Origin: Glaucostegus cemiculus
Taxonomy: Eukaryota
Direction of reading: 5' to 3'
Length of the DNA: 64,000 nt
Assembly (NCBI GenBank): GCA_976551045.1
Contig: CDPCPM010000060.1
Span: 10,664,001-10,728,000, forward strand
Of the stretch, positions 1-36,690 are shown in pieces. Position numbers and translations under genes: made by a program. Numbering within the stretch: position 1 is the first letter of the stretch; each line of letters begins with the position of its first letter. The notes under the pieces were generated by a model that was given only the letters and a program-made list of their open reading frames with translations, ran no database searches and was not told the DNA's origin.

Positions 1-30
1 CTGGGAAAGTAGAACATGCTTAGTTTTAAT
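1..30 (-). other. Minus-strand 3' splice acceptor ending at window base 1; possibly the acceptor of the RAG2 coding exon lying just outside the window
   Basis: Reverse complement reads ...AAACTAAGCATGTTCTACTTTCCCAG: branch-like CTAAG, pyrimidine tract and terminal AG. The RAG2 assignment is inferred only from the known NWC/RAG2 arrangement. Confidence 0.35.
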
Positions 31-993
31 TATCTTTAAGTTTCCTCCCTCACAGAACTTTTTGAATCATAGATGACTCTGTTCATGTTTTTTTTTTACT
101 AATATTGTCCTGAATTGGAAATTTTTTATCAACTTTGCTCAATTTGTGCCTTTTTGTCATGTTCACATGATTCAGTTCCATCTCGTTTCTTCCCTTCCTC
201 AAGTTCTCTATCTGAAGATAGTTGATTAGTATGTACACTTTCCTGTAGCTACAAGGGCGGTAGTTGCTCTTGATCTGCTACTTGAAAGCTCTCTATTTCA
301 TTTTTTTTAGGTTTTCCTTCTCTAATGCATGTATTCTGATGACATAATTTTCCATGCTCTCTATATGATTTCCTTATCCCTCAGCTGAGGATTCCATTCA
401 ACATGATGGGCAGGATCCCCACTTACGTCAATTATAATTTCCTATATTTCTGTTTTCACTGCTTCTTCTCCTACCTAGAGCCATTATATAGTTTCACATC
501 CTTTGCAGATGGCTTCACTTTCAACAGATTACTATTTAACAACACTGCCATCTCCAGCAAAACACTACCTTCTTCTTAGATTGTCCCTTAGGACTGAGGG
601 TGATTTATTTCCACTCCGAATTTATGGTTCTGAGGTGGTTAATGAGGCCAATTTTGGAACTGCAGACTCATTCACAGATGGGACAAGTGGCGGTTGATGG
701 TGTAGATAGGTGGCTATGCTCTGTAATCCTATTTAAACATTTCATCTCTCCTACCTTCCCCATCACGGGCCTTTCCTTTTGTTCCTTCCACCCTCCTCTT
801 CATTTTTCTCACCTTCATTAGTTGCTTAAAGCTGATGCCATTTATATCTTTTTTCTAGTTATTACAAATATCAATTTGAAATGTTAATTTTGTTTCTCCC
901 TTCATTCGTGGAAAATCATGACCTGGTGATCATTTCCAGTTTCTTCTATTCTTGTTTTTATTTTCAACTTCACTTTCCTGTTACTCCTTTTAC

Positions 994-1095
994 AGATACT
1001 GCAGGTACTGGAATTTGGAAATCTGAAAAGGTAGACAATACTGGAAATACTCGGTAAACCAGATGACATTTCTGGAAAGCGTTTTTGGTCGACTT
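994..1095 (+). repeat. Degenerate short Penelope-associated terminal repeat
   Basis: ACTGCAGGTACTGGAATTTGG...ATACTGGAAATACTC resembles the ACTGCAGATGCTGGAATCTGG repeat at 23788 and, inverted, at 27365. Confidence 0.45.
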
Positions 1096-1285
1096 CCAGG
1101 GCTTTCTGTTCTAATTTTTCATTTAGTCTCTATAGAGTATTTTAACAAATAGTTTTGGATACAAATAATGTCACATGGACTCAAACTGACACCTCAGGTT
1201 TCCTTCTCTTCCATACATTTGCTTCTGGAACTCAGCCTGACGGTGTATTTTTCTTGGCGGACCCATTTCCAACGAAAGGAAGGAC

Positions 1286-1311
1286 CACGATACCTGATGG
1301 GACTTGCAGTT
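1286..1311 (-). promoter_or_regulatory. ZNF143/Staf binding site (ACTACA-extended type), inverted copy
   Basis: Minus strand reads AACTGCAAGTCCCATCAGGTATCGTG versus consensus ACTACAnnTCCCAnnATGCnnnGCG. Confidence 0.6.
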
Positions 1312-1340
1312 TATTGCTGCGTTGCTTCAGTGGGGAGCAG

Positions 1341-1365
1341 ACTACATCTCCCAGCGGGCACTGCG
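1341..1365 (+). promoter_or_regulatory. ZNF143/Staf binding site (ACTACA-extended type)
   Basis: ACTACATCTCCCAGCGGGCACTGCG is a near-consensus ACTACAnnTCCCAnnnnGCnnnGCG. Confidence 0.8.
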
Positions 1366-1369
1366 CCAC

Positions 1370-1426
1370 GACTTGGCGTTGCCAGGGCCACAGGGGCAGG
1401 GAAGGGACGCCGTGATTGTCGGACGA
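1370..1426 (+). other. IFTAP: Putative non-coding first exon of IFTAP (5' end approximate)
   Basis: Donor CGA|GTGAGT at 1426/1427 just downstream of the promoter motifs; no ATG in the exon. Confidence 0.6.
1378..1391. promoter_or_regulatory. RFX X-box-like motif
   Basis: GTTGCCAGGGCCAC versus X-box GTTGCCATGGCAAC, near the presumed TSS of a ciliary (IFT-A associated) gene. Confidence 0.5.
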
Positions 1427-4400
1427 GTGAGTAAAACCTGGTTAAAGTGGCGGCTCTGAAATTGGTCAGCACTGTTTAAGCAGTTTTGAATGCTTAAAAT
1501 TGACCGTTTGATTCACTCGAGGAACGCAGTGTAGTTTGGTTGATTTTCTGACGAGGACCCGCTTCTCGCCAGGGTTGAGCGACCTGTGGCCTGTGATGCT
1601 GCCGACCTCGCGTCTCCTCGTCCACCCCAACCCATGCACACTGACCCACAGCGTGTATGGGTGGCACTCTGCTAGTTTAACCAGTGGCACTGTGCCCTGG
1701 AGAGGGGAGGGTGAAGTGTGATTACAACCAAACGCTCTACTGTTCATATATTTGCAAAAAAAACCCCGACGGATTCCTTAATATTTTGAAAGTGCTTATG
1801 GTAATGGAAAAATCAATGACAGAAGTACAATAAGAGGATTTTGACAGCTTTTTAAAGATGAATATTACCTAAAAACAATGCTTGTTTATTTACTTTTTTT
1901 TAAAGAAAAGGATTGTTAGAAAACCTGAAGTGCTAGAAGATTTTAGTTGAATAGATGTACTTGCATATTTGTATGTAGAAGTCAATTATGAGAAGTCTGC
2001 AGGAGTTTTAATGATATTGGCAATACGGCTTTTCTGTGTAATTCTTTTTATTAGGCCTCTGTCTTGGTTCAGCTGTGCATGCTCCTTTCTGAATCAGGGT
2101 TGTGAGTTCAAGTACCTCTCCTGACACTTGAGCATGTGGTCTGGGCTGGAACCTCAGTGTTGCTCTCAGTTTTAATATTTGAATTTGTAGGATCCAACTA
2201 GCTGAATCAGTTATATGTTCCACTTTCAGCTGTTACTGACCTCTGAGCAATGTTGTTTACTTACTGCTTATAAATCCTTCAGTAATTTGAAGTTGGGACA
2301 GAAAGTATTGGAAGTTAATGTTTTTCATTTAGTATTTACATTTATCCAATAGTTGTTTAGTGCATTAGAAGCAAAAGCATTCAATGTTGCCCTCTCAATA
2401 TTGGCACTTGATTTATGTGATATTAAAATAGTTGTAACCTTAAATCAAATGTGAATACTTAAGCAGAGTTATATCACAATGCACAAGCATATTGTTAATT
2501 TTAGTTTCACAGTTAACCTTATGCTGTTAAAGCAGAATTTACAAAGTTCTTTTTACATGATTCTTGTGTTCAATGAAGTTGATATGCAGTGCCTTTTAAA
2601 GTAATTCTATTCAGTGACACCTGATATCTTATTATGCCAAACTGATACTTGCTCTGGAGTCAACAATGAGAAATTACTGCAGCATAAAGATATTATTTTT
2701 ATTTTAAATTCAGTTGTTGGTATTTTGTCCTGTGGTTTTGGATGGGGCCTTTAGTCCTAATTGTATCTATTTGTTACTTTTTTAACATCTATACTTGAAC
2801 AAAGTAACACTATATTGATAATCAAAGAAATATTGAAATTGGTTTTGCCATTTTTATGGTTATTGATAAATGAGGCAAATTTAGTATCATTTTCACCCAG
2901 TTAAATTGTAATGCTTATTTTTGATGTGAAATAGAATTTGACACTAACATTTAATCTTAACATTATTTATGCTTAGAATAGTTTTTACTTAAATTTATAT
3001 CTAATTTGGTTTCTACTTACAGACAGTTAGGCTACTTTTTCTAAGAAATCTTTCAGGGTTTTTGTTTTTTCCTTACAGAAAATCAACTGCTAGTTAGTCA
3101 ACTGTGGTTGTGATATAAACCAATGTAAGTTTTAGGCACTACTTCTTTATTCTTGCTAGATGTCTTTGTTTTGCCTTGATTTAGATGCAGTTTGATGTTC
3201 AAGTTGCCCATTAGCCCTATGTATCCTGTTTGTTTGACCATTCTTTGTATAATTGATGTGTACAAAATTAAGAGAGGGTTTGGCAGGGTGAGGAGCAGGT
3301 CAATTTCTTTGCACAGGTGGGTTCAGCCAGGGAAAAGTAATTGGGCAAAGGATTAGAAATGAATTGAAGGAAGATTTTTCCATCAAAAGAATCATGATGA
3401 CAAAAACTTTAATTACATTAAAAAAATATACCTGGAAGAAGACCTCCAGGTACATTTAAAAATATATATACCTGCAGCCACAACAAGTAAGATTACAGAC
3501 TGAACTGGAAGCTGAGATTGAAGTAATTAACCTATTTTGGCTGGCCTGGACATATTGAGCCCATTTCTGATTTGTTAATTTCTATGTTTCAATGAACAAT
3601 GACTGCATTGCCCAAGTAATACTCCAGATGTAAATAACTTCTGGACTTCATAAAAGGAATGTGAAAAGCCCTGCCGAAATGCAATTAGTTATTTTCTTTA
3701 ACCTTTTGTCTGTTTCATCTTTACTTTTTTTCAAGTTTTACTTATTTCAAATTACCTTCTGCTTTCTATCAATAAGATGACAATTGGGAATTACAGACTT
3801 TCATTCTGCACTTTCTTACAATAAAGCTACCATTGGTCCATTTGCACTTTATTATTATAACCTATTATATTTTTAACATGTAGACCTTCATTGCCTTTAG
3901 ATGTAGATATACTGAATACTTACTGCTGCTATGATGCTCAGCTTTAATTACCTGCAAAATAAATTGCTTCTCCGCAACACATGATAATTATTTGAATTGT
4001 CTAATTTTCTTTTCAGTTTATAGCTTTGCAGACGTACAATATAATGTTGGCAATGTCATTTAACCTTAAAATTAACAGATATAATTAATTACTATTTTTC
4101 TATATTGTAGTCAGTTAACCTTAAAGAGACTGGCTGTTATTTAAATTACTTGGTGTCACTTAGCACCTTTTGTAAACCTCAAACGGTTGTAACAAATAAG
4201 TCAACAAGAATTAGGTTCCTTGAAAATATTTGGTCTGCATTAAGTACTGTAAGTCTATTTTACATACAAGACAGCTGTTACTTAGAACGATCACTGTGAC
4301 AATAGTGTATGCTTGCCTTTAATATGAGCATAATACTGAAATAATCTTACCTGTACAGTGCAAAGAGTTGAAGAGACTGGAATTGCTTGCAGAATTCAAA

Positions 4401-4715
4401 GTTGCAGAACTTGGTAAATATGTAGCATACAGTCAATGGAGGATGTATCTGAGAGCATTTACAGCTGGTGCAGATGATACTGAGCACTTCCTTGATGAGA
4501 GCAAATGGTGGTGCACAGCAGATGCTTCAATGACGTGGTGTGTTTCAGATATGCAAGATATTGAATATGTTTATGTATACATTACTGTATAACTAATATT
4601 TAATTTTGTTCATTATTAGCACTTGTTATCTCCTGTACAGTTATGAATTCCTCCAAAACAAATTCCCTTTGTGCAACTGTCTTGGTCTTTATCTTAATCT
4701 TAGTCTTAGTCTTAA

Positions 4716-4971
4716 GGGCAGCACAATAGCTTAGTGGTTAGCGAGACGCTGTTACAGCGCCAGCAATCAGGGTTTGATTCCCATTGCTGACTGTAAGGAG
4801 TTTGTACGTTCTCCCGTGTTTGTGTGGGTTTCCTCCGGGTGCTCCGGTTTCCTCCCACATTCTGAAAGACGTACGGGTAGGTTAATTTGGGGGTTTAAAA
4901 TGGGCAGCGTGGACTCGTTAGGCCGAAAGGGCCTGTTACCACACTGTAAATAAAATGTAATTTAATTTAAT
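4716..4971 (+). mobile_element. tRNA-derived SINE (V-SINE type)
   Basis: A-box TAGCTTAGTGG, B-box-like GGTTTGATTCC, core GGGTTTCCTCCGGGTGCTCCGGTTTCCTCCCACA, AT-rich tail. Confidence 0.9.
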
Positions 4972-4984
4972 TCAGAATGAGATT

Positions 4985-5024
4985 TAACATTGAGTCTTAA
5001 ACATTGAGTCTTAAACATTGAGTG
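4985..5024. repeat. 15-bp tandem repeat, about 3 copies
   Basis: AACATTGAGTCTTA-containing unit repeated. Confidence 0.85.
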
Positions 5025-6479
5025 TTGAAGTTCTGTGTGCTTATGCCTATAACACCTGTGCAAACGGTGAAGAATTAGTTAAATCAGCACAACACAACTG
5101 ATGACTTTTAAAACTGAATTATGGCCATGAACATTTACACTGGTTTAATACTCAATTTGCCCAGTTCAGGTGTCACCCACAACAGTGGTTCTGCTCCCTT
5201 CAATGCTGACTCTGGTTTAGCAGCCTCATCAAATAGAAGGCATATTTTAAAAGTTTTTCTTCAGTGATCTTAATTCTGCTTACTCAAAGATGGAGGACAG
5301 AAAAGCCTTATTAAATAATACTTATTTTTGGTAATAAAGCATATTTCAGCAATGTACTCTGCTCCAAGCTACCGCTGCTGAAAAGATCAAAAAGTACTTT
5401 TTATAGGAAAAAAGAATGCTGATTACTTGTGCTATGGTTTGTGATTATTGCAAAGTAATTAAGAATTACTTGAAATGAAAGGTTAGTTGCACAATATGGA
5501 ACAAATTGTGTGCCATTTTCTTGGTTATGACCAAAGCCGAATGTCTCTGGTAATTTAAAATGGTTTTTGCAAAATACTTCCCCCACCTCCTTCCAAAATG
5601 GTCTGCCGGTGTTGTATTTTACAACAACTACAGCTGGCTTGCTACTGATCTCAGTAGTATTGTAACAAACTTAACTTGGATGATCCTCCCAGCATTAGCT
5701 TGAGGAAACTGCTGGGAGGATTTACGACATTGAGGGCCTAAATGTTTAAGGGTCTTCTGTGTCGTCAGCATCATGTGGGGTTTAATATTTAAAGCAAACA
5801 GCTGGTATGTCACACCTCCAGACTTAGCCAGAACTTTCAAATTCAAATCTTTTAAAACATCCTGAGTGTCTTTAAGACATTTTTGCATGTTGAACTTCAA
5901 GAGGAATCCAGTATTGGAGCGCACTCAACTTCCCAGTAGTGAATTGTTGATGCTCCTTTGGGATTTCCACATTTGTACATGATTTTTGGCAATCCCAAAG
6001 TTCCTCTGTTATGTATGTAATGATGTCAGATGCTGACAGTTTTGCTGTTATAATCCTGAAAAATTGAGTCCATATTTTAACTGACAAAAATGTGGAGTAA
6101 TAATTTTTAATATGTTTAGCAAAAATCTTTTCCTCATGTATTACAGGTGCATCCAGTTTTAATATGTTCAGGTCCAATTTTAATATGTTTAGGTAGTAAC
6201 GGGTGAAACTCTGAAGAAGGAATGATGGGTGAGTGAAACACTTAGAATTAGACCTTGCTCTGTTTTTACTGTTGGAATCACCATTCTGTAACCACCATTG
6301 TTTCTGGCTTTTGTAGTACTGTGATAAGTCTATCAGTCCTTAGTTAACAGTTGCACTGTGGTTAATTATAATAGAAATAAAAATGTCCCTCTCCTGTACA
6401 GCAGTTCCAAAATTACCATTTGCATGAAATGAAGCATTGAGATGTAATATGGATTCTTCAAATTATGAAGCAATTGGAT

Positions 6480-6860
6480 ATAAAACAGGAGTGGGAGAAG
6501 GCTGTATGGGCCCTCATTCTTCCTCAGCCATTCCATAACATCATGGCTGATCTGCTTTTTGGCCTCAGCTCCGCCTTCCTGTCTGATATTTCCCCATTGC
6601 TGTTTTTTTATCCATGTGGCTAAATATGCATCTGTCACAAACTTTGAATGCATTTATTAACTCAGCATTTACAGCTCTTTGAAGAAGTGGAAAATTCCAA
6701 AGGTTTTCAACTATTCAGAAGAAATTCGGCTTCATTTCAAGGGCATTCATTACCCTGAGGCTGTGCTCCTTAATTCTAGATTCCCCTTGAAGGGAAACAA
6801 CTTAGCGGTAGTCACCTTGTAAACCGCTTCCCCCCCCCAACCCCCGAATCTTATATTTCC
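6480..6860 (-). mobile_element. Degenerate CR1 LINE 3' fragment
   Basis: Resembles the CR1 3' ends at 37910 and 56020 (CATGGCTGATC...GAATTCCA...CTGAGGCTGTGC). Confidence 0.6.
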
Positions 6861-8885: not shown

Positions 8886-9184
8886 GATAGCATGGTAGCA
8901 TAGTGGTTAGCATAATGCTTTATAGCGTCAGTGACCCAGGTTCAAATCCAGCCACTGTCTGTAAGTTTGTACATTCTCCCCATGTCTGTATGGGTTTCCT
9001 CTGGGTGCTCCAGTTTTCTCCCACATTCCAAAGACGTACAGGTTAGGAAGTTAATGGGCATGCTATGTTGGCGCCAGAAGCGTGGCGACACTTGTGGGCT
9101 GCCCCCCAAAATCACAACACAAAAGATGTACTTCACTGTGTGTATCGATGTACATGTGACTAATAAAGATCTTATCTTATCTTA
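8886..9184 (+). mobile_element. tRNA-derived SINE (V-SINE type)
   Basis: A/B boxes, V-SINE core and (CTTAT)n tail; paralogous to 24327-24615 and 46492-46800. Confidence 0.9.
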
Positions 9185-11346: not shown

Positions 11347-11657
11347 GGGTGGCACAGTGACACAGCTGGTAGAGCTGCTGCCTTGCAGTTTCAGCAACCC
11401 AGGTTCAATTCAGATTCCCAGTGCTGTCTGTATGGAGTTTACATGTTCTCCATGTGACTGTGTGGGTTTCCTCCAGGTGCTCCAGTTTCTTCCCACATCC
11501 CAAAGATGCTCATGCCGGTAGGTTAATTGGCCCAAGTTTATAGTGAGTGGTAGATTCTGGTGGGAGTTGATAGGGCGAGGAGGGCAAATAAAACCAAGAT
11601 TTGAGTAGGATTAGTGTCAACGGGTACTAGATGGTTGATGTGGACTCAGTGGGCCAC
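11347..11657 (+). mobile_element. tRNA-derived SINE (HE1/V-SINE-like)
   Basis: tRNA-like head CAGCTGGTAGAGC...AGGTTCAATTC, core GGGTTTCCTCCAGGTGCTCCAGTTTC, CR1-like tail. Confidence 0.85.
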
Positions 11658-12576
11658 ATGACTACATAGACCTGAAAGTTACCATGGCACTTTTCTGAAG
11701 AGGAGTAACAAGTCCTCCCAGTTTCCTAACCAGTATTTTTCCTCCTCAATGAGTAGCACTAAAGCAGGTTACTGCATCTCAATTGCTGTTTGTGGCATCT
11801 ATACTTCTTTGGCAGAGACACCTTTTAGGATATCATAGTGGACGAAAAGCACAATTATAACTGCAAGTTCTTCATTCCTTTAGAGGAAAATTGCTCTTGT
11901 ATAAAAATAGCACAATAAAACATCATCAAATAAGCTGAATTAGCTTAGTTTGCATTCCCACACAATTAGTCACACTGCAAAAAATAATTTGATCACTTAC
12001 TTGATTACATATATGTTCTCCAGGGGATCATTTTCACTTCCGGATGACAGTTACTACATCAACAAATAAATTGTACAATTAATCAAGAGGTATTACCCAC
12101 AACTTTTTCAGACAAGTTTTAAAAATACTGCAGCAGTTTGTATGCATCCCAACTTAGTTATCAATGGTGGAAGTCAGAACAATTGATATGAATGTTTCCT
12201 GTTGCCAAACCACCAAGTTTTGCATAAATCATTGAGATTGCCTTGTGTAAACATTTTGTACTGGTTCATTCATGATCCCCCAGAGAACACATTTGCAGAA
12301 GTTGGATACCTGCACTTACAGATTTTAACTGTTTTGTTTTTAAATGCTTTGTGATATAGCATCCTGGTTTCATTGTTAAAAAGCAATTAATTTTGAAAAC
12401 ATCAGCTATATTTAAATTCATGACTTTCCTTGTGAGTTTTTTTCCAATTAAAACACTGGAAATTTGTTTTATTAACTATCTGATTTTATCTCTTTTAGGA
12501 AATCATAATTACAAAACCAGACAACAAATAATATTTTCAATAAAAATTCTGTAAGTATTATTTTCAGCAAGATAAT

Positions 12577-14450: not shown

Positions 14451-14454
14451 TTCC

Positions 14455-17340: not shown

Positions 17341-17632
17341 ATCCAGTTGGATGTAAATTTTGGAGGAGCAGTATGTTCTTCTGCAAGAATAGCATCAAAA
17401 AGGGACCAACTAATCATTCATTGAATTTGCAGTTTGTGAGACCTTATTGTATCTAAATTGACTCTATATTTGCTCAATAAAAGTGACTGGAATATAGTCA
17501 TAATGTATTCATTCTTGCCTCATGTTAGGTTTACTTAAAATATCTTTTTGTTTATTTTTATATGAAATTGTTGTGTGTTATATCTTGTACTACACTTTCT
17601 TTTTATTTCAGAATAATGCACAAGATGTACTG

Positions 17633-17756
17633 ATGTTTATGATCCTGACAACAATGGAGAAGGAAGGAATAACCTGTGATGCTCTGGAAAAGTTTTGCAG
17701 GAGTCATGAACAAACGTATGAGGAATTTCTGGAATCATTTATGCACCTTGGAAGAG
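17633..17756 (+). CDS. IFTAP: IFTAP/NWC (C11orf74) first coding exon; exon starts at 17612, start ATG at 17633 or 17654
   Basis: MFMILTTMEKEGITCDALEKFCRSHEQTYEEFLESFMHLGR matches the recalled IFTAP N-terminus (..LDKF.NCHEQTY.EFL.TF.HL). Acceptor TTTCAG at 17611, donor AG|GTAAGC, phase 1. Confidence 0.92.
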
Positions 17757-18041: not shown

Positions 18042-18178
18042 AGGACATGAAGAAACAAAATGCAGCACCTCCTGACATTGCGGAGGTATCAGAAGATGCT
18101 GGAAAATACCTAGAAATGAAGGATGTACTGACATACTCTCTTGAGAAGGGAGGACAGTCACTTAAGGATAATGAAGAG
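18042..18178 (+). CDS. IFTAP: IFTAP coding exon 2
   Basis: Acceptor TTTCCAG; a phase-1 join gives EDMKKQNAAPP...KDNEE. Ends at a GC donor GAG|GCAAGT (phase 0), compatible with the next exon. Confidence 0.8.
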
Positions 18179-18289
18179 GCAAGTTTTGAGCCAGAGATGC
18201 AGTCCGTAGGAGTTATCTCAACTTATCATGTTATATCGCTACTGATTTCTATCAAATATTTTCTGCAGAGGCAGTTCATTGGCGTATAG

Positions 18290-21460: not shown

Positions 21461-22430
21461 CAGAATCAGAATCAGAATCAGTTTTATTGTCACAACCACA
21501 TACATACAAAGTATGCAGAGGAGCGATATACCGTCCTCCTCAGGTGCTCGTCCCATACAAAAATAACATAACAACCAACAGAGAGACACATACACACTTG
21601 GCAGAATGCATAGTACAGATCATTACACCTTAAAAGCTAAGGGGATTGAACTTAAATTCAGGATCAATTTATCGATTTTCACTTACACGTATACATGTGC
21701 AAAAGACATCAAAGACAATAAAGGACACCGGGACAAAAACATCAAAACATTAACAGCCCCCCTGCCTCACCCCGCACCGACGACCACCTCCAACCCCCGC
21801 AGTCCTACAACCTCAGGGCCCACAGACCATCAACAACCTCCGGCCACAGTCCGACAGTCCGACCACCTCCGGCCCCGCAGGCCGACAACCCCCGGCTCCT
21901 TCGCCTCCGACTCCGCAGTCCGGCGGCCTCCGGCCCCGAATTCCGGCCCCGCAGTCCGGCGGCCTCCGGCCCCGAATTCCGGCCCCGCAGTCCGGCGGCC
22001 TCCGGCCCCGAATTCCGGCCCCGCAGTCCGGCGGCCTCCGGCCCCGAATTCCGGCCCCGCAGTCCGACGGCCTCCGGCCCCGAATTCCGGCCCCGCAGTC
22101 CGACGGCCTCCGGCCCCGAATTCCGGCCCCGCAGTCCGACGGCCTCGAGCCCCGCAGGCCGACCACCTCCGGCCCGAGCAGCCCCCTCACTGCCCGCATC
22201 CCGATGCCACCACGAGGCTCCCGGGCCTTCAAGACGCTGCCGCCTCTGATGAGCTCCGACGAGCCGTCGGAGCCGACAGTACCGACAACGACTCCATAAA
22301 ACGGCACACAAACATCAAGAACAAAGAACACACAAGAAAAAAACACAGAAAAACACTAGAAGACTAACAAAAAAAGACAAGGACTACAGACCTGGGAGAG
22401 GCCGCTGCAACCAGGTGCACCGCCATCTTC
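21461..22430 (-). mobile_element. Young non-autonomous retroelement (LINE-derived 5' end plus (GATTCT)n tail)
   Basis: Minus strand begins GAAGATGGCGGTGCACCTGG and ends ACAATAAAACTGATTCTGATTCTGATTCTG. Its 3' ~130 bp matches 52780-52920. CpGs are intact. Confidence 0.75.
21913..22146. repeat. GC-rich 36-bp minisatellite, 6.5 copies
   Basis: Unit CCGCAGTCCGRCGGCCTCCGGCCCCGAATTCCGGCC, head-to-tail with no spacers. Confidence 0.97.
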
Positions 22431-23990: not shown

Positions 23991-24326
23991 ATTTGATTCA
24001 ATATTGAGGTCCTCTTTAAGAGCTAGAGCCTTGGTATTAGTTGGAGCTAGTGGATTCCCAGGTTATGAAAGGTATTTATGAAGTTACTAATGCATGTGCC
24101 TTAGTAGATCCTTGTGATGTGTGATTCAAGTCTGCACATGTTTTTGTGAGGTGTGATGAAGGCTTTTGCCTTTTCTGCTGTTTCGGGTTGTTCCAATCAA
24201 TTCTCCCATTTAACTTAAATCTCTGTCCTCTTGTTACTGTCATGTCTACTAAAGAAAATGGGTCCTTTTTGTTTACCCTATTAAAACTCGTGTGATTTTA
24301 CACACCTCAATTAAATCTCCCCTTTA

Positions 24327-24615
24327 GGCACGGTAGTGTAGCGGTTAGTGTAACACTATTACAGCACCAGCGACCTGGGTTCAATTCTGGCCGCTCTCTG
24401 CACGTAGTTTGTACGTTCTCCCCGTGTCTGCATGGGTTTCCTCTAGGTGCTCCGGTCTCCTCCCACATTCCAAGGATGTACGGGTTAGGAAGTTTTGGGC
24501 ATGCTATTTTGGCGGCGGAAGTGTGGCGACACTTGTGGGCTGCCCCCAGAACACTCCACACAAAAGATGCATTTCACTGTGTATTTTGATGTACATGTGA
24601 CTAATAAGGATATAA
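24327..24615 (+). mobile_element. tRNA-derived SINE (V-SINE type)
   Basis: TAGCGGTTAG A box, GGTTCAATTC B box, V-SINE core. Confidence 0.92.
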
Positions 24616-26119
24616 AAACAGCCCCAGTCTTTCCAGTCCATACAGTATCTGCTAAACAGACCAACTGCAATGGGATCAAATTCTAATTTTAACTGGAAAA
24701 TGTATCTGTGCCCTAATGTCTGAAATAACAATTTCAAACGTATGCATGTCAATAATTTTGCTAACAATTCATTAGATCTGGATAAAAATAAATATGTTCT
24801 TATTTTTCTTAATTTTACTCCTGAGAAATTGAGACACCAATAAGACAATATTTTCCCAACAATTTTAGCATTCACCTAAATATTTTTCAAATTTGGTTTG
24901 GTAATATGGCATCAATGTGAAGGACAAAATATTCATGTAATTTCCTAAAGACACTGACGCATTATCAAAGTATATTATCTTTAACCATGAAATTAATTTT
25001 CACCCAGGTGGTGGTGAGGTCTGAAACTTGCTGCCTTAAACGGGGTAGAGTTGTAAACCCCTCACTGCACTTTTTTAGAAAGTATTTGAAGAGCTGTAAC
25101 CTGCAATGAGTTGCCTCCTTTCTCAATATAATTTTACTGTGATTCTGCACAATAAGTGCTCTAAGTATTGATTTCAATGAAATATAGCCTGGCTGTTAAA
25201 GGTATTATGTTGATTCTTTTAAAAAGTGAAGCATTGCATATGACAGAAAAAATACTATTTTTAATGGAATTTAATGATCGCAGTCCAACCAAGTGACTAT
25301 TCAGGCTTACCTCGTGACATGCTACATACTAGCTTGTGTTACTTGTAACAAATGTTTCCTGTTTTTGCTAACCACATAGAACAGTTGTTATTTTGTTAAT
25401 GGTTGAGTGAACAGAATGTATTCCTTATTGTATTTTTATTAGCATTTTGCAGAACTTATTAGAAATATTAAATGTTTAAATTAAGTAGGCTTAAGAGAGA
25501 ATTTTGAAGTATTCCTTTCTGCCCACCATATGTATTTTTCTTCCCATAATGTGAGTAATATTTTATTCCAGAAACAATCATTGCAAAGGACAATGTCAAC
25601 CTACTTGCCAAATGAGCTGTTCCCTTTGTATTTTTTGATCTTTCACTTTACTCATTCATTACCCCTTACTCATTCATTACCCCAGGACAAACTGGCCACC
25701 TAGGCTGCTTGTTCAGGGTTAGTGATGAAAAGTCACCTACAGCTTAGCTAGTACAGTCATGCCCCCTACAGGCAGATCCATAGCATTGTGTGGCTTGAAG
25801 TAGGCTGCTTTGGTCAGTTAAGCAGCACAGTGCGATACATTCTGAACAACTTGTGACCTCGTTTGACTAAACCTACTGGCAATAAGATTAGTGTCTTTCA
25901 GTAATGAGTTTGATTTTTAAAGGTTACAATTTGCTGATGAAAGCAGTTGCAAAATAATTGCTAAATTATGATTTTATATCTATTATTTATCACAGTCCAT
26001 AAAATATTACAATTTTTTTCCTTCGAAAATAACTATGAAGCTAAAAAAATTGGTTTTCTGGTTATCTGTGAGAATTTTTTCCAGTTTCTACCATTTTTGA
26101 TAGTTCTAACACTTTGTGT

Positions 26120-27400: not shown

Positions 27401-28991
27401 CCTGATTAAATCAGGGCTTGATCAGCTGGAGATGGGAGTGGTAGCTGGAGATTGGAGCTTGTGGCAGTGAGGGAAGGTGGTGGCCTCTGGAAATTGGAGA
27501 GGGCAGTAGGAAATTCTTTGGGGGTCTTTAGGGGCCTTGTGCAGTGTTGCCTGCAGGTGTGAACCTGATGGAGGTGGAAGTTGGCAATTGGAGCCTTGGA
27601 GCATGAGAAAGACTGACAAGGAAGCATGGGGAGCCATGTGGTGGTGGGTGTGAACAATCTGAGGTCTGAGGGGAGAAGGTAGGGCTTAAGGTAGATTAAA
27701 GGGAACCTACCTGTATTGGGTTCCCTATGCTGGGGTGGCATCTGTTTAATAGACATCCTTTAAGTTACAGAAAAAAATCAGTGCTATGCTGCTGTATTCC
27801 AGATCAAACATTTTTCTTTACTGCATTGTTATGTGCGTCAGAATAAATTAAATTTTACAAATGATTCTCATCAATTTGGCAGTTTCAGTCCCTCATTTCC
27901 ATTTTGTTAAGAAGTCCAAGTGAATGGGTTTAACAGATACAGGAGTGTGATGCCTACATTTTATCTCCCACATATGGCAGATGAACAGATGTTACAAAAT
28001 GTGAAACCCAATCTGCTAGTATTATTTCCAGTTTAATCATAAAAGATCCCACTAGAGATGTGAATAAGAGGTTATAATATTTAAATCAGGCTCTTTTCCT
28101 TGGATTTTGAGATCCATTTGAGCTTAATGGGCATGAGCTTTATTTCCCAGGGCCTTGGAATGCCAGCAACTGAAGTGAGATGGTGGCTGCCAGCTCCAGC
28201 TGTTTGAGTGTTTTTCTAATATTGTTTATGGGCCAGGACGTGTGTAGAGCTATTTCCTGCCTCCTCAAGCAAACCTATTATAATTTCTCCTTCTCTGCAA
28301 TCTTCCAATTTTCCCCTGCAATGTCTGGGCCTTCTGAAATGGCCTCCTCTATTCCTCATATCTGTGCTTCAAATTCCTCACCCCTTCTAACACCCATTGC
28401 TGGATATCATCTGCAATGAACGCTGGCTCTGGCCTTTTACACATGTTTTATTGTCAGGCTATTGGCCACCTTGCCAACCTACCCAGCTGCCAGGAATGAA
28501 AAATACTCTTTTGAAGTGCTGAATCGCAACATCTTCCAAACATTTCATAGTCTTGTTGTCACTCCTTCCATCTCCCAGTAAAATATAAGAACTCAACTTT
28601 CAGGAAATAATCATATTTTTAACATTGTTTAAATGGCTCTTTTAATATTGTTTAAATAGCCTTTGGTATTTGCAGAAGAAGGGAAATGTTTTATTTGTTT
28701 ACCCCTTGCCTCTCAACCTCTGTTCCTATTCTTTTTGGGAATTTATCTTTCTTGGAACATTGTAGAGTAAATGCTGGCTACTTCATAATATGATGTAGTA
28801 ATGCTTTCTTATCAGGTTTCCTGTGTTTTGCAAATGTTATGCTGTAAGTGCTTAATTTATGGTACTGTACAGCGAGAAGAAATTTTAATAGTTGATTCCA
28901 AATGAATTTAACAAGTTTATAGTTTGCTTTTAAAGATGTCCATCACTAAAGTTTTTTAATTAACATTTTGTTTATCTTTAACTCATTTAAG

Positions 28992-29058
28992 GTAGAGAAT
29001 TGTATTGACATTGAAGACACAGACAGTGGCAAAGGGAGTGAACAGCAAAGTAGCACTG
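28992..29058 (+). CDS. IFTAP: IFTAP coding exon 3
   Basis: TTTAAG|GTA...; VENCIDIEDTDSGKGSEQQSST matches the IFTAP VDNFLDLEDLD motif. 67 bp, donor CTG|GTAGGT, phase 1. Confidence 0.85.
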
Positions 29059-29329
29059 GTAGGTACTCAGTGTAAACTGTAATAATTTAAACTGGATAAA
29101 TGAATTTAGCAGAATGGAGACTATTTTCTGGTGCTTATAGTCTATTCAATTCTTGCTATTTTTTAGCATACATTTTCAGGTTCATTTCTCAATTTTATAC
29201 TTGTTGAAATAGTTTCCAGTCGCTGTGGAACAATTTGCCTAGAATAATTTCAAATCCAGTATCTGGCAGTTCAACTTTACAAGTCAACAATATTGTAATT
29301 TATCATTCATTACTGAGAATTTAAGTATT

Positions 29330-30090
29330 GTTATTGGTTTATCATTGTCACATGTACCGAGATGCAGTGAAAATTTTTTGTTTGTGTGCCATTCTGTCAG
29401 ATCATGCCATATATAAATATATTGAAGTAGCAAAAAGAAAAACAGAATGCAGAATATAGTGTTGTAGCTACAGAAGTGCAGTGCAGGTAAACAAATAAAA
29501 TGCAAAGGCCACAATGAGGTAGATTGGGAGATCAAGAGTTCATCTTGAGCATATGAGAGGTCTGTTCAAGAGTCTGATAATAGCTGGATAGAAGCTGTCC
29601 TAGAGTCTGGTGGTACATGTCTCCAAGCTTTGTATCTTCTGCTTGACGGGAGAGGGGAGAATGACTGAGGTGGGAGGGGTCCTTGATTACTTTGCCTGTT
29701 TTCAGTCTACACTTCTTGGTGCCTTGTGAATCGATGGAAGGGATGCTGGTCTGTTTGATGCACTGGGCTGAGTTCACAACTCTCTGCAACTTCTTGCAGT
29801 CTTGAGCAGAGCAGTTACTATACCAAGCTGTGGTGCATTAGGATAGGATGCTTTCTGTGGTGCATCTGTAAAATTTGCTAAGTGTCATTGAGGTAAGTGT
29901 CACGCTGAATTTCTTTAGCCTTCTGAGCAAGTGGAGGCATTGGTGTGCATTCTTAGCTGTGGTGTCCACATGGCTGGACCAGGACAAATTGTTGGTGATA
30001 CTTATACCTAGGAACTTGAAACTCTCAACCATCTCCACCTCAGCACTATTGATACAGACTGGGGAGTGTTCTCCATTGTGTCCACTCAAC
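29330..30090 (-). mobile_element. Rex1/Babar-like LINE 3' fragment
   Basis: VEMVESFKFLGISITNNLSWSSH...LHLLRRLKKF...FYRCTTESILS. Confidence 0.9.
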
Positions 30091-30194
30091 TAATATAACC
30101 ACCCATAACTAGTTAGAATCATGTTACTTTGAAGGAGGACATTTGGGCTATTTTGCGTGCAAAAATTGACTTTCATTTCGTAGTCTATACTTTA

Positions 30195-30570
30195 TTGGTA
30201 TTGGTTTATTATTGTCACTTGTACTGAGGTACAGTGAACAGCTTATCTTACAAACTGATCGTACAGGTCAATTCATTACACGGTGCAGTTACACTGAGTC
30301 AGTACAGAGTGCATTGATGTAGTACAGGTAAAAACAATAACAGTACAGAGTAAAGTGTCACAGCTACAGAGAAAGTGCAGTGCAATAAGGTGCAAGGTCA
30401 CAACAAGGTAGATAGTGAGGTCATACTCCATCTCATTGTATAAGGTAACCATTCAGTAGTCTTATCACAGTGGGGTAGAAGTTGTCCTTGAGTCTGGTGG
30501 TACGTGCCCTCAGGCTCCTGTATCTTCTACCCGATGGAAGAAGAGAGAATGTCCCGGGTGGCTGGGGTAG
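30195..30570 (-). mobile_element. Rex1/Babar-like LINE 3' fragment
   Basis: Close inverted match to about 20500-20866. Confidence 0.88.
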
Positions 30571-31749
30571 CTACAACACTATATTCTGTATTCTGTTTTT
30601 CTTTTTACTACCTCAATATATTTATATATGGTATGTTCTGATAGAATGGCACACCACAAAAAATTTATAAAATACCAAATAATTTTTTCTTGAACCATTG
30701 TCTCAAAATGCATTCTGACCATTGGTGCGTGTTTCATTCTTTTCTGTTTTTAAACAGGGCTGTAATACTAAGAAGAAACATAAGAATAGGAACAGGGCAT
30801 TTAGCCCCTATTGCCTTTTCTACCACTTAATGATAGTTGTGATGTAATTTTCTGTATTGACCTTTGTTTCTGGTCTGTGTCTTTTGATTAACAAGAATTA
30901 AATACAAAACTCTTATTTCTTTATCATAGCCAGATCAGCTGTACAGTATGAAATGAATTTGGTATAACATTGTTCTTAATACTTATATTAGACCTAATTC
31001 AATCTGGTACCAGTGCAAAATACTGTCATTGATCACTAACCATTTTCACATATTTGCTTGCAAATTCTTCTCTTTAAATCGTGTGCATTTGAGGCCTTCC
31101 ATTTGCAATTATGAATATTTAGGGACTTAGTTCATATATTTTAAAACATTATGGACTTGTTTTATTTACTGAGCTAAGTATGGTTATGTCTTTATTTTTC
31201 AACTGCAGAATGTATTTTATTGACCTTTGTATTTGAATGCAAGTTATTCATGATAAGATTAATCATGATTCTAGCAACTGCTACCCAGGGACAGTCCCTG
31301 CTGTGCCACAGTTGCCTTAGACAGGCTGTTCTGCTTCAGTGCAGCTCATTAAACTGCAGCTGGGCAGATAAGTAGCAAAACAGCAGACACCGATAATGAA
31401 TACACTTAATGGCTCAGGAATTGAGGTAATACTTTAGTTGGGGCATTATGATAAAAGCATTGTTTCAAATAAAAGCAGGAAACAAAATAAATATCAATAC
31501 TGCATTGGATTTATGTAATACTTCCTTCGTTGAGAACTTTTGCTGGTTAGACCTTGAAAACTGCAGCCTTTTCCAATTAATACAAGAGTAATTTATTGAA
31601 TGAACAAATTAAAAGAATTTCTAGAAAATGGGCAGTCATGTCATAGCTGAAATTTATTGTCATTGTCTAATAGTGGCCTTTTTTTCTTGAACTATTGTTG
31701 TCTATTATGTCATGGTGGTCTACAACAGTGATAAGTAGATATTTCCATG

Positions 31750-33560
31750 ACTTTGGTCTAGTGATATTGAAGGAATAATATATTCCCAAGGCAGGGTGTT
31801 GAGCAATTTGGAAGGTGACTTGAAGGTCTTTCCACCACCCATAAGGGGTAAGTCAGAAACATGATGGAATTCTCTAAATTGCCTGGATGAGTGCACTCCC
31901 AACAAATCTCAAGAAGCTTTACTCCATCTAGGACAAAGTAGTGGCACTGGGCTTCAAAACGACTGTTACTCACCCAAACTACCTTGACACACCTTCCAAA
32001 CCCACAACCTCTACTACAAGAAAGAAAAGGGCACTGAGTGCATGAGAAATCAGTCACCTGCAGGTTTCTCTCCTGACCATCCTGATTTGTAAATATATCG
32101 CTAGTTGGGCTTAAGTCCTGTCCAGCAGCCCTGCCTGAGTACCTTCTTCGTAAGTACTACATCAGTTGAAGAAGGCAGCTCACCCCCATCTCTTTGTGGG
32201 CAGTTAGGAATAGGCAATAAAAATGATAACTTCACGTCTGCTGTCCTTGAACTTCTAGTTGAAGTATAGGAAGAGCTGTCAAAGAAACTCCTTGGTGAGT
32301 CACCTGCAGAGCACATAGTAGATATTACCCATTACAGCCATAATAGAAATGGTGGTTTTTGGATGGCTATAATCCTGGTCAAGAAATCTGCCTTATGCTG
32401 GATGAAAATGAGCTTCTTGAATGGTGCTGCATCTGTACACATTCAAGCAAGTGAAGACTATTCCATTAAATTCCAGACATCTGCCTTGTACATAATGAAG
32501 TCAGAAGTTGAACCAGTTGTGGCAGTATATCACCTGATCTAGTAGCCAGAGCACTTATGTGGCTGATCTGTTGAATTTCTGTTCAGTGCTGATGTCTAGA
32601 AGGTTGGGTGTTTTTTGCGATTGTTTTTTGCGGGGAAATAATGAGGATCTCTTGTTGGAGTTGGTCGTTGTGTAACATGAATATTACTAGGTACTTATCA
32701 GCCTGATGTTCTTCAGGTCCTGGTCTATATGCTCAAGGACCATTTACCCCCGAACACTACGCACTACAACTTCACTCCGATCTAATAGTGGAAGGAATGC
32801 CTTGAACGCTGCCCTCGTCTAGAATGTTCAATCTCACACAGTTGGGTACTTGGTACTTTGAGTGTGTTTGCTTTCTGCTTGGTGACCTGCTGTGTGTAGA
32901 TGCTACCTTGAAGAAACCCTTTATATCTGCAAAGTGTCAATTTCTCAGTTGGTGGCTGAAGGTGTTGAATCCTGTAACAAGTGTCATTTTCCTTCTTAGC
33001 CACTGTTACCTGACTGAATAGATATTCTTGGCTATCAGAAAGAAGAAAACCACAAAGATAAGATCATAATGAGAGTAAACAAGCTAGAGATATGTGTGTG
33101 CGTTGTCAGCAGTTTCTAAATTTGATAGAAAGGGCAAATAAGATCCAAGAAGGAATATTGGGTCTGTCTGTATTTTGTCTTCAATGACCTCTGCACCATT
33201 GCTGAGAATGCTCAATGGCAGTTGCATCAATAATTCTAGCAGTATCTCCTCCAAGCTAGTTTGACCTCTTCACTTGTGGGTAGCTGTTTCACTAGAGGGA
33301 GAGGCTGAGAGGGGCAAAGAGAGTGAGATGTGTACAAGCTGTAAAATGCAGGTGTATTTAAATTTTAAAGTTGTGATTGAAGCAGATTGTTAGGTGAGTG
33401 ATGAGGGTGTATACATTGAAGGTGTAAATTAGGGAGAATTGTTGAGAATTGGGATTTGATCACTGACCTTGATAGCATCCATGAGATCATTAAACATTGT
33501 GCACTATGTCCATGTCCTTTGGGCCCCTCTCCTAGCATTGATCTCAAGTGCCGACTTCTG
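31750..33560. mobile_element. Old degenerate LINE fragments (CR1/L2 group), both orientations
   Basis: AWMSALP...LKKL.SI.DK-like remnants on +, decayed RT remnants on -. Confidence 0.55.
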
Positions 33561-34798
33561 TAGCTTCACTATTTTTATTTAGATTTGGACCTGTGGGGTA
33601 TCCTGGTAAACGTATGACTCAAGTACCTTTCTCTTTCTCTTCATCTCGTCAATAAGGGTGTTCAGAGTCTTCAGTGTCTTCACTCTCTTTGATGTGCCCT
33701 CATCTTGCCCAGTCTTTGAATTGACTCTCACCAGCTGTTGCAGATGTCACTTCACTTAAAGTAGCTTTCTTCAAATTGGTGCCAGCCACTCATTAAGTTT
33801 CACATGGTGGCTGTAAACAAAGCTATTATAACATGTTTAAACAGTTTGTTGAAATCTTGATGAAATGGTGGGAGCAAAGATTTTGTATTCACCTTGCACT
33901 GGGTCATAGATGTAAAGATATCTTTCTATTGTTTGAGGAAGAGCAGGGCACTTTCCTGGCATCAGTTGAGACACACCACTTAAACTAATCTTTCTCCCAT
34001 TGCTATTTATGGGGCTTATGTATAGTGGTTTCCATGTTTTCTTAATTTCTTACATACAATTTAATTTTTTAGCAGTGAAGAACTTTGAGATATGATGGAG
34101 GTGGGCATGTTCATTCTTTATTAATATTATCTTGTAGTTAACTGTGACTATCTCTTCACATAACCTGCCTATAATTTTTTCCTCAATCTATATTGGAAGA
34201 TGCTGCACATTTGCTGATTAGTAAGACTAATAAATGGCCAATAATTGAGACTAATGTACTAATGTTGTGGGGGACTATGACAGTGAGTAGAGTCCTACTA
34301 CTTTAGAGAACAAATGTGATTGATATTGGCACTATTCTGTGGCTTGCACACCATGACACAGTAAAACTCATTCAACAAAATTCTGTTGCTAAATATTATA
34401 ATGTGGTATTGAAGGAATATCAGGTAGTTCAAAATCAAACTTAAAACTGAGATGCTGGTTACTTTCATAATTTGAAGGCACTGTATTTGGCAAATTCAAA
34501 GTCTAAAAATAATCTGTGCAGGGGTATTGCTAGTAATTCCACATATATTGTGCAAGGAAGTTGATGATGGGCATTTTCTATGATATGTCTGTGATGCTCA
34601 CAATGCAGGGATAGTTGTGAGTTCATAGGCTTTAATAAAATATTTATTACGAAATAGTCTTCAAAATATTCCAGTAATGCACAGACTAAGTTTGCCTAGA
34701 CATTTTCACTCCCATCTCGGTATAGCCACATTTTGGCTGCTCAAATATTTATAAATATTATTAGCATGTTATTAATTGCCACTGTCCATTGAATCTAG

Positions 34799-34932
34799 GA
34801 GGAGAAGTACTCCCAGGTAAAATAGAAGAGGAGATTCCTGCAAATTATTCTCATTGTGAATATAAATACACAACCCTTGACTTCAAACTGTATCCATGTG
34901 TTGAAGAGTTTAATAACAAAGCACATGACCAG
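34799..34932 (+). CDS. IFTAP: IFTAP coding exon 4
   Basis: CTAG|GA phase-1 join gives GGEVLPGKIEEEIPANYSHC...KAHDQ (IFTAP LPGEVE motif); donor CAG|GTACGC, phase 0. Confidence 0.82.
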
Positions 34933-35284
34933 GTACGCTGATTATTTAAGACATTTGAAAAATATTTTGGAGGCTTTACGCTGCTGCAAAGTAGCTACAT
35001 TGCTGATGCCCATAGATTGTATTTTCTGTGATCTGCTGATTACTGGTATGATGCTCAATTTGGACATTGTTCAAATCCAAAATGCATTTACTTTTGTTTA
35101 CTTGAACACATCAAATCCAAAATACTTTGTAGATGATTGTCCTATATTCCCAAGATCTTTCAAGGATTTTATTTCTTGCTGGCTCATTGACACTTTAGTT
35201 TTCAAATCAGATAGTTTCTTGTAATTTGTAATGTAAGAGAAAAATAAGAGGAAAAGCAGCCTTTGTGTTTCTGTTTGCACTCTT

Positions 35285-35465
35285 ATGTGTTGCCTGATAG
35301 GGTGGTGGAGGCAAATTCATTGGGGGCTTTTAAGAGGGGCTTGGATGGACACATGAATGAGAGGAAAATGGAGGTATATGGGCATTTTGTAGGTAGGAAG
35401 GATTAGCTATGTCAGCACAATATGATGGGCTGAAGGGCCTGTTCTGTGCTATACTGTTCTATATT
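35285..35465 (+). mobile_element. CR1 LINE extreme 3' end
   Basis: GGTGGTGGAGGCA...GGGCTGAAGGGCCTGTTCTGTGCTATACTGTTCTAT tail. Confidence 0.8.
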
Positions 35466-35709
35466 CTTTATCTATTTCGATATGAGTGTTGTAGTCGGCA
35501 AAAATATATAGACATCAGTGTGATTCCTAGAAAGTTTCAGTCATCAATTTAAAAACAAGGAGGACTTTTGAGCAGGTTTTAATTTCATAAATTTATCTTT
35601 TCTTTACTGTAAGTACTGAGCATTGTTTTACATAGATTCAGAGCGTAGCAGATATTTATGCATCCATATTTTCCACTTTGCCACATGATATAAAATCCTG
35701 TGGCAGGTA

Positions 35710-36200
35710 AATTGGTTTATTATTATCACATGTACTGAGGTACAGTGAAAAACTTGTCTTGCATACTGGCTATACAGATCATTCCATTACAACAGTACAT
35801 TGAGGTAGTACAAGGTAAAACAATAACAGAATTCAGAATAAAGTGTTGCAGCTACAGAGGAAGTGCAATGCAGGAAGACAATAAGGTGCAAGGCCATAAT
35901 GAGGTCAAGAGTCCATCCTATCATACTAGGGGACTGTTCAATAGTCTTATAACAGCAGGATAGAAGCTGTCTTTGAGCCTGGTTGTACGTGCTTTCAGAC
36001 TTTTGTATCTTCTGCCTGAAGGGAGGGGGGAGAAGAGAGAATGTCTAGGGTGGGAGGGGGCTTTGATTATGTTGGCTGTTTCACCAAGGCAACGTGTAGT
36101 GTAGAACATGTCCATGGGGGGGAGGCTGGTTTCTGTGATGTGCTGAGCTGTGTCCACAACTCTCTGCAGTTTCTTTTGGTCATGGGCTGAGCAGTTACCA
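35710..36200 (-). mobile_element. Rex1/Babar-like LINE 3' fragment, ending about 75 bp before the last IFTAP exon
   Basis: KKLQRVVDTAQHITETSLP...HSLFSPLPSGRRYKSLKARTTRLKDSFYPAVIRLLN. Confidence 0.9.
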
Positions 36201-36276
36201 GAGTAAGTGAAATTAGAGGAGGGCCATTTTTCCAACCATAATTTGCCAGCATGAAATCTGCTTTATTTTTCATTAG

Positions 36277-36450
36277 GTATTGACAGATGAAGTCCAGCCT
36301 TTCACATTGGATGAAGAATTTGATTATAACTGTGTTCATTTCAAACCCAAGTATACCGAGGCTGAACTTAAAACTCTTTCTGCCTTGTCACAACAGCGAA
36401 GAGAAAGTGGAGAATATAATGCAGCAAAATTGAATGATTCTGTCTTGTAA
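36277..36450 (+). CDS. IFTAP: IFTAP last coding exon
   Basis: TTTCATTAG|GTA; VLTDEVQPFTLDEEFDYNCVHFKPKYTEAELKTL...NDSVL* contains the hallmark DEVQ.F.LDEEFDY motif. Total spliced CDS is 636 nt in frame. Confidence 0.93.
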   Translation, partial: VLTDEVQPFTLDEEFDYNCVHFKPKYTEAELKTLSALSQQRRESGEYNAAKLNDSVL

Positions 36451-36640
36451 TGCAGTTGTCATTTTCTGGTGCAGTCTACCGGGCAGCATGACTTTCTGTT
36501 ACAAACAGTTGTTACATTTGAAATAGAATATGGGAAGGAGAACTTTCTAATCCCACAAAAACTTCTACTAATTGAAATCATGCAGTGAAATGTTAACAAA
36601 TTTCACATTTTTTAAATGACATTTGTTCTTATTTTAAATA

Positions 36641-36690
36641 ATTAAATTAGATAAAGATATAAAGTGACTGATTTGTTTGTGTTATTTTTT
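36641..36690 (+). terminator. Candidate IFTAP polyadenylation signal
   Basis: ATTAAA at 36641, about 190 nt after the stop, followed by a GT/T-rich element TTTGTTTGTGTTATTTTTT. Confidence 0.5.

Follow-up and report, generated by a model that had tools for sequence, protein, structure and literature searches.

This analysis concerns IFTAP, also called NWC or C11orf74, in a stretch of 64,000 nucleotides (nt) from the batoid Glaucostegus cemiculus (assembly GCA_976551045.1, contig CDPCPM010000060.1, positions 10,664,001 to 10,728,000 of the forward strand); the window is this whole stretch, with base 1 at its left edge. As read from the genomic letters, the interval is a whole, intact IFTAP gene of six exons, the first of them non-coding (Table 1). 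Exons were located by a motif scan and by direct reading of the 64-kilobase (kb) window, and splice sites were ranked by an approximate matrix against all AG (n = 8447) or GC (n = 4902) sites. The five coding exons lie on the plus strand between 17612 and 36450 and, counted from the ATG at 17633, give 636 nt, or 211 amino acids (aa) and a stop codon, with no internal stop and with intron phases of 1, 0, 1 and 0. All five acceptors are AG, and the donors comprise three GT and one GC, the latter after 18178 (GAG/GCAAGT). Both splice sites of exon 2 rank high (acceptor top 0.19%, donor top 0.12%), and the gene closes with a TAA at 36448-36450 and a 3' untranslated region that carries ATTAAA at 36641 with a GU-rich stretch beyond. 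The 211-aa product is acidic, with an isoelectric point of 4.4 and 22% aspartate plus glutamate.

A first-pass annotation, made from the letters alone, had assembled five phase-compatible exons into a 211-aa IFTAP-like frame and had stated that three of them are absent from the open reading frame (ORF) track. Both statements hold. The frames with exons 4, 5 and 6 give start-to-stop ORFs of only 35, 50 and 56 aa, and these exons are therefore missing from a track with a 60-aa start-to-stop rule. A 52-nt AG...GT segment in intron 1 (12499-12550) was considered as an extra 5' exon and rejected; its acceptor ranks in the top 2.9% and its donor in the top 9%, without homologue support.

Identity and probable start codon of IFTAP

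The identification of the gene as IFTAP/NWC of elasmobranch type, also made in the first-pass annotation, is borne out by Pfam, by named elasmobranch matches and by the tree. When each exon was scanned singly against Pfam PF17722 (gathering cut-off 29.3 bits), exon 2 and exon 6 passed alone (43 and 60 bits), and exons 3-5 stayed below the cut-off. A search with the last exon returned nine matches, all nine named elasmobranch IFTAP, with that of Pristis pectinata the best (96%). A profile search returned 138 matches; among the 120 listed, 119 carry PF17722 and the remaining one is named iftap. The best match of the assembled protein had been expected to be C11orf74/IFTAP and is P. pectinata IFTAP (93% identity over 211 aa), followed by other batoids (69-76%), sharks (43-64%), chimaera (42%) and coelacanth and mammals (30-34%; 30% for Mus caroli). 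The P. pectinata protein aligns to all five coding exons in order, with local identity of 83-98% on four of them, and elasmobranch RefSeq IFTAP proteins (Pristis pectinata XP_051885637.1; Hypanus, Hemitrygon, Mobula, Leucoraja, Amblyraja and sharks) have the same five coding exons as the window. In a tree built on 17 named rows, with unnamed records and extra isoforms left out, the branching matches the species tree, and the window joins Pristis (94/91) within the batoids (100/100), as a relative of the smalltooth sawfish P. pectinata that is distinct from it. In the same alignment, at least 16 of the 17 rows agree at 35 columns, most of them inside three blocks. The NWC protein is likewise described as having three conserved blocks in the part of PMC4939155 cited here, a trait that it has in common with the IFTAP of the window.

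That part of the paper also describes co-immunoprecipitation of mouse IFTAP with IFT122, IFT139, IFT43 and IFT144, and protein knockouts are described as mild in the sections cited of PMC4939155 and PMC6283527. A PDB sequence search with Hemitrygon IFTAP gave no match at E <= 1. IFTAP is already annotated in more than 12 cartilaginous fishes, and neither the gene nor its link to RAG is new, which leaves no surprise for a specialist.

A different reading of the locus, as a paralogue or a decaying pseudogene, is scarcely credible. The closest record, named 'IFTAP-like', carries an unusual N-terminal extension of 103 residues, and the GC donor and a frameshifting cassette exon could also be taken as signs of decay. 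However, the frame is open through five exons, the promoter and poly(A) word are intact, the gene tree is the species tree, and there is no second elasmobranch copy among the matches listed. The Pristis extension itself is promoter DNA read as protein and is frameshifted in the window.

For this intact gene, alignment favours Met8 as the probable conserved start, which gives 204 aa; the 211 aa represent only the longest frame. Met1 (17633) is doubted as the start because P. pectinata has Leu at this position, because the context is weak and because the stop of a 5-codon upstream ORF (uORF; 17616-17633) overlaps it. By comparison, Met8 (17654), with A at −3 and G at +4, is invariant in all nine aligned elasmobranch proteins, and stingray IFTAP models begin at Met3. 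A start at Met8 would give a protein of the same length as Heptranchias IFTAP.

Table 1. Features of the IFTAP locus, in window coordinates (protein blocks in residues)
Feature	Position	Strand	Details
Candidate splice acceptor, putative RAG2 coding exon	1..20	-	Pyrimidine tract and CAG ending exactly at base 1
CpG island, IFTAP/NWC promoter and exon 1	1251..1800		200-nt windows with GC >= 0.5, CpG observed/expected 0.63-0.94
Predicted ZNF143/Staf site, RAG2 side	1286..1312 (core 1298-1312)	-	1 mismatch to 15-nt core
Predicted ZNF143/Staf site, NWC side	1339..1365 (core 1339-1353)	+	0 mismatches to 15-nt core
Exon 1, non-coding	1375..1426	+	Start estimated by mouse analogy; donor CGA/GTGAGT, top 2.4%
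Exon 2, first coding	17612..17756	+	ATGs at 17633, 17639 and 17654 in frame; uORF 17616-17633; conserved block 1; Pfam PF17722 E 6.5e-11
Exon 3	18042..18178	+	Ends in GC donor (GC-AG intron), top 0.06% of 4902 GC sites
Conserved non-coding element, shark-ray, 105 bp, intron 3	25333..25437	+	tblastn E 3.5e-7, 38.1 bits
Exon 4	28992..29058	+	83% to P. pectinata, E 1.6e-6; acceptor weak (top 16%), donor top 1%
Mobula cassette exon counterpart	34200..34282	+	Mobula residues 109-134 match 34184-34261, E 0.001
Exon 5	34799..34932	+	Conserved block 2 (LPG..E); 98% to P. pectinata; acceptor weak (top 19%), donor top 0.55%
Exon 6	36277..36670 (end estimated)	+	Conserved block 3; coding to 36450; Pfam PF17722 E 4.3e-16; 96% to P. 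pectinata
Conserved protein blocks	L18-L39; L114-E121; D158-E184		12, 4 and 16 columns identical in at least 16 of 17 named rows

The predicted ZNF143 promoter and the probable position of RAG2

The first exon was placed with the help of the public P. pectinata model, the first 96 residues of which map to 1149-1426 (residues 86-96 to 1394-1426) and which then continues at 17612. The donor of non-coding exon 1 was fixed at 1426 because of this jump. As coding sequence, the 103-residue Pristis extension was ruled out by frameshifts that break its frame in the window (278 nt for 96 residues). By this comparison, the N-terminal extensions of the public Pristis, Carcharodon and S. torazame IFTAP models appear to be promoter DNA mistranslated.

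Exon 1 sits in a CpG island, in a window where the observed-to-expected CpG ratio is 0.1-0.3 in most 2-kb bins. The island also holds two predicted ZNF143 sites. With the 15-nt core consensus taken from the section of PMC3439442 cited here, just two sites in the window come within one mismatch, and these form a divergent pair inside the island. The pair was noticed by eye before testing; an inverted pair occurred in none of 300 composition-matched resamples, and perfect cores average 0.013 per resampled window. As the same section of PMC3439442 describes it, the mouse NWC promoter is a CpG island that lies within the intron of RAG2, 313 nt away from that gene's coding exon; it is driven in both directions by two inverted ZFP143 sites, which are also found in Xenopus and coelacanth. 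According to the cited part of PMC4157847, the mouse sites are 36 nt apart, and a site ends 10 nt before the transcription start site. The window therefore has the same non-coding exon 1, CpG island and inverted ZFP143 pair as the mouse RAG/NWC locus (Nwc, B230118H07Rik; human C11orf74/IFTAP), whereas the gap between its sites is 26 nt.

Promoter letters of other species were inferred by back-translation of their mis-predicted N-termini. The same ZNF143 pair can be read in the extensions of P. pectinata and Carcharodon, where 1 and 0 of 300 shuffles, respectively, reach it. A literature search found no study of an elasmobranch NWC promoter or a shark RAG enhancer, and a 2018 promoter study (on jawed vertebrates, by its title) may cover the former; the window gives exact coordinates of the elasmobranch NWC promoter.

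It is highly likely that RAG2 adjoins the left edge of the window, on the basis of the promoter anatomy, the elephant shark accessions and the acceptor at base 1. That acceptor ranks in the top 0.66% of the 8447 AG sites and is tied best of the 121 minus-strand AGs in 1-1300. Only 0.00044 of positions score as high, in a post hoc examination of both ends and strands. Accession numbering is taken here as positional. The elephant shark C11orf74 homologue, XP_007885836.1, is consecutive with the RAG2 accession, XP_007885835, which is listed alongside RAG1 (XP_007886047) in the part of bioRxiv 10.1101/100735 cited here. In addition, the cited passages of PMC3439442 and PMC4157847 describe NWC-RAG linkage as conserved in vertebrates.

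Several observations weigh against this reading. RAG2, RAG1 and TRAF6 are not in the window, and RAG2 adjacency is therefore unseen: there was no RAG match among all 239 stop-free frames of at least 62 aa in the window (42 of at least 100 aa and 197 of 62-99 aa), nor among 72 minus-strand frames of 20-61 aa within 1-4700, the one part in which such short frames were scanned. The matches that the frame scan did return were IFTAP (1), RVT_1 (4), GDSL/OSK at 61915 and a sub-threshold ALKBH8_N at 29841. A minus-strand acceptor at 1023 equals the score of that at base 1, and the elephant shark RAG1 accession is 212 numbers off, a sign that accession order is loose. If RAG2 is adjacent, its coding exon lies at least about 1.4 kb from the promoter, more than four times the mouse distance, and no site in the window fits the primer for exon 1 of mouse RAG2 with fewer than 5 mismatches in 20. 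Housekeeping promoters often carry ZNF143 pairs, and NWC and RAG are described as unlinked in sea urchin in the cited passages of PMC3439442, so a promoter of this kind can do without RAG2. In S. torazame, the plus site is perfect and the minus site has two mismatches, a level that 66 of 300 shuffles also reach, and no pair can be read in the extensions of Rhincodon and S. canicula X2. The gene model, for its part, was read from genomic DNA alone, and the acceptors of exons 4 and 5 are weak.

From the missing RAG sequence, the long spacing, the sea urchin arrangement and the equal acceptor at 1023, it could be argued that IFTAP is intact but parted from RAG2, or that RAG2 lies much further left, with a plain ZNF143 housekeeping promoter and a chance acceptor at base 1. 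Such a separation is highly improbable given linkage described as vertebrate-wide, consecutive elephant shark accessions and an acceptor of a strength found at so few positions. An intact batoid IFTAP gene with a two-way ZNF143 promoter, and with RAG2 most likely at or just beyond base 1, is very probably the correct description of the locus.

By analogy with mouse, ZNF143 would drive the IFTAP promoter both ways. Rightward transcription would yield IFTAP, which on the same analogy would be a small acidic partner of IFT-A in ciliary transport, and leftward transcription would run into the RAG2 coding exon, starting at or just past base 1. A lymphoid RAG2 promoter and one or more non-coding exons may lie on the minus strand within the 16-kb intron 1 of IFTAP, and in lymphocytes read-through from RAG2 might silence the IFTAP promoter. 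Two further elements of this scheme, an absence of Ikaros competition and an enhancer role for the conserved element at 25.3 kb, are speculative. Deletion of the mouse NWC promoter caused no Rag derepression and no phenotype (PMC3035778).

Regulatory words and the conserved element in intron 3

In mouse, the word TGGGAA overlaps both ZFP143 sites, where Ikaros competes with ZFP143, as described in the cited part of PMC4157847. The two ZNF143 sites of the window contain TGGGAC (1286-1312) and TGGGAG (1339-1365, other strand) instead, such that the overlapping word of the mouse type, present at both mouse sites, is present at neither here. TGGGAA is absent from the whole CpG island (1251-1800), and GGGAA is present at 1399. 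In three other elasmobranchs, the codons exclude TGGGAA at five of six sites and leave one open, making seven of eight with the window. These data suggest that the ancestral promoter had no Ikaros/ZFP143 competition, although Ikaros may bind close by or through variant words. That the overlapping Ikaros sites, and hence the competition, were added later, in bony vertebrates or mammals, is a tentative proposal that we lean somewhat against. If the absence of the Ikaros words is functional, one step of the published model of lymphocyte-specific RAG expression would be a later addition.

Candidates for a RAG2 promoter in intron 1 are no stronger than chance: minus-strand donors at 4351 and 7649 are strong and a MYB/RUNX/ETS stretch lies near 3103, none of them above chance. 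As a side observation, minus-strand donors lie near MYB/RUNX/ETS words at 2980-3160 and 4351, a possible RAG2 first exon or promoter, again at chance level.

The first-pass annotation had also presented the interval as the cis-regulatory landscape of RAG, and this description was not upheld. E2A boxes are unclustered: among the 71 in the window, no 300-nt stretch holds more than 3 and no kilobase more than 4, which does not exceed the random level, and no cluster of the amniote-enhancer type was found in the window. The RUNX, MYB and E-box words of the conserved element are not kept in catshark, and the amniote enhancers are unrecognisable in fish, according to the cited sections of the reviews PMC8007930 and PMC8199221, which describe R-TEn and R2B as conserved in amniotes and not in amphibians or fish, with sharks unmentioned in those sections. 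A RAG cis-regulatory landscape is an expectation here, not a finding. The exons of mouse Nwc are interspersed with known Rag enhancers (PMC3035778), and the sections cited of PMC8007930 and PMC8199221 place Erag 23 kb upstream of Rag2. The amniote enhancers Erag/R2B and ASE/R-TEn fall in the same expected position class, upstream of RAG2 and within or beyond NWC, but an E-box cluster like theirs was not found in the window.

The element in question is 105 bp of shark-ray conserved non-coding sequence (Table 1); its score of 38.1 bits exceeds those of all 300 shuffles, the highest of which is 33.5. Its orthologue is an alternative last exon of isoform X3 of iftap in the catshark S. torazame, and the AG at 25331-25332 is in register. 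It is the best of 640 AG-anchored segments (65 vs 34) and lies in the expected intron. The element is more conserved than coding exon 3, with 19 of 35 codons identical between ray and catshark compared with 15 of 45. Self-comparison revealed no second copy in the window, and the catshark tail matched only itself among 1.84 billion representatives, a weak test for non-coding repeats. A minus-strand donor at 25311 (GAG/GTAAGC), 22 nt left of the element, is among the five strongest on that strand and could mark an antisense or distal exon in the RAG2 direction.

One explanation for the element is that it is a splicing feature of IFTAP, either an alternative last exon, as annotated in S. torazame with its AG in register, or a relic of a 24-codon exon that is found between exons 3 and 4 in chimaera, coelacanth and mammals and is absent from the window model and the other elasmobranch rows. 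This explanation is possible but unlikely. Two stops fall in the catshark frame within the window element, and conservation ends after 105 nt. As a relic of the 24-codon exon the element was rejected, ranking 142 of 640 against a profile of 15 named proteins, with 201 of 2000 shuffles scoring as high; the catshark and sawshark inserts fail the profile too (307 and 215 of 2000). Elsewhere in intron 3 no relic of that exon was found (best profile score 2.5).

A second explanation looks to mammals, with the introns or 3' flank holding counterparts of the RAG enhancers Erag/R2B and ASE/R-TEn, either as the 25.3-kb element or as the stretch at 42.35-42.65 kb. The element lies 25 kb from base 1, near the 23 kb of Erag in the mouse locus, where Nwc exons and Rag enhancers alternate, and it packs E-box, ETS, RUNX and MYB words into 40 nt. 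The 300-nt segment richest in nine lymphoid motifs, with 13 hits near 42351, is marginal, since 49 of 2000 random placements reach 13. Set against these points are the random level of E2A boxes and the lack of recognisable fish counterparts already described, and the fact that the mouse ASE is 73 kb from Rag2, beyond a window of 64 kb. Moreover, triples of MYB, RUNX and ETS words number 2 against 0.82 expected, a count that 23 of 100 resamples reach for a pattern defined post hoc, and in catshark the RUNX, MYB and both E-box words need at least one mismatch, leaving only ETS compatible. We regard such counterparts as distinctly unlikely.

The element may be a splicing element, an enhancer of IFTAP or a neighbour, or a RAG enhancer. 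That it is a RAG enhancer of cartilaginous fishes' own is improbable, and we give still less credence to the broader proposal that the elasmobranch locus keeps an older form of RAG control, with a two-way ZNF143 host promoter without Ikaros sites and an enhancer of its own at 25333-25437. The element is a candidate for a fish-type RAG control element, although the evidence for its role is thin. Separately, the densest cluster of lymphoid words (four RUNX, three MYB and two GATA, with E2A, Ikaros and TCF) occupies 42300-42700, in unique DNA 6 kb past the gene.

Splicing differences and surrounding DNA

Splicing of IFTAP differs between lineages at several junctions. The exon 3/4 junction of the window aligns without gaps to P. 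pectinata, skates and sharks, in agreement with the GC donor, and GT alternatives after exon 3 were rejected as poor matches or in conflict with the alignment. In contrast, stingrays and mantas have 6 extra residues at this junction that match 18179-18196 of the window, and their codons exclude the GC donor. By this alignment, they appear to have lost the GC donor and moved to a donor 18 nt downstream. The cassette exon is in frame in Mobula, whereas its counterpart in the window is 83 nt long and its inclusion would cause a frameshift and a stop at codon 146. In stingray and manta isoforms, the start of exon 5 is shifted downstream by 6 or 9 nt relative to Pristis, skates and sharks; tandem AG acceptors are present at exon 5 in the window (34797-34808). 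Mouse Nwc has seven exons (PMC3035778), compared with six for IFTAP in the window, which lacks the 24-codon exon.

The hypothesis that NWC was host gene to the RAG transposon has been put forward in the cited parts of PMC3439442 and PMC4157847. The window neither supports nor weakens it, because matches resembling recombination signal sequences are at background: 14 loose matches, all with an imperfect heptamer, were found where 9.6 are expected, and the highest count among 100 resamples was 22. Relative to ProtoRAG and RAG-like transposons, in which terminal inverted repeats bound RAG1L-RAG2L, the window would belong to the host DNA that flanks the proposed insertion on the 5' side of RAG2, and unlike ProtoRAG, which has RAG1L-RAG2L coding sequence, it holds no RAG-like coding sequence.

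The window is AT-rich (39% GC), CpG-depleted and of vertebrate type. No other gene was detected right of IFTAP in the window, and Rfam gave no match in it at the gathering score. Self-comparison placed 15% of the window in eight multi-copy groups, an underestimate for single-copy repeats; the remaining introns and the 27 kb past the gene consist of relics of long and short interspersed elements (LINEs and SINEs) and unexplained unique DNA. Relics of reverse transcriptase occur in three places (13.2-13.8, 38.9-39.2 and 56.2-57.2 kb), and there is a fragment of GDSL type at 61.9 kb. A minus-strand segment at 43100-44500, with no Pfam match, is presumably a decayed retroelement, by eye a Penelope-type reverse transcriptase with a GIY-YIG end. 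A SINE-like family has seven copies (4721-4887, 8890-9170, 11371-11528, 24325-24614, 41324-41422, 46509-46799 and 52323-52384), and a family of five copies, at 12576, 20416, 29325, 30193 and 35708, represents a LINE 3' end. Within a LINE relic in intron 3, a GC-rich tandem array of a 36-bp unit (21868-22175; 6.9 copies, 97% matches) forms a second CpG-rich patch; all six of its frames are open, with no Pfam match. Finally, unique DNA contains a 73-bp local direct duplication, at 45191-45263 and 45576-45648.

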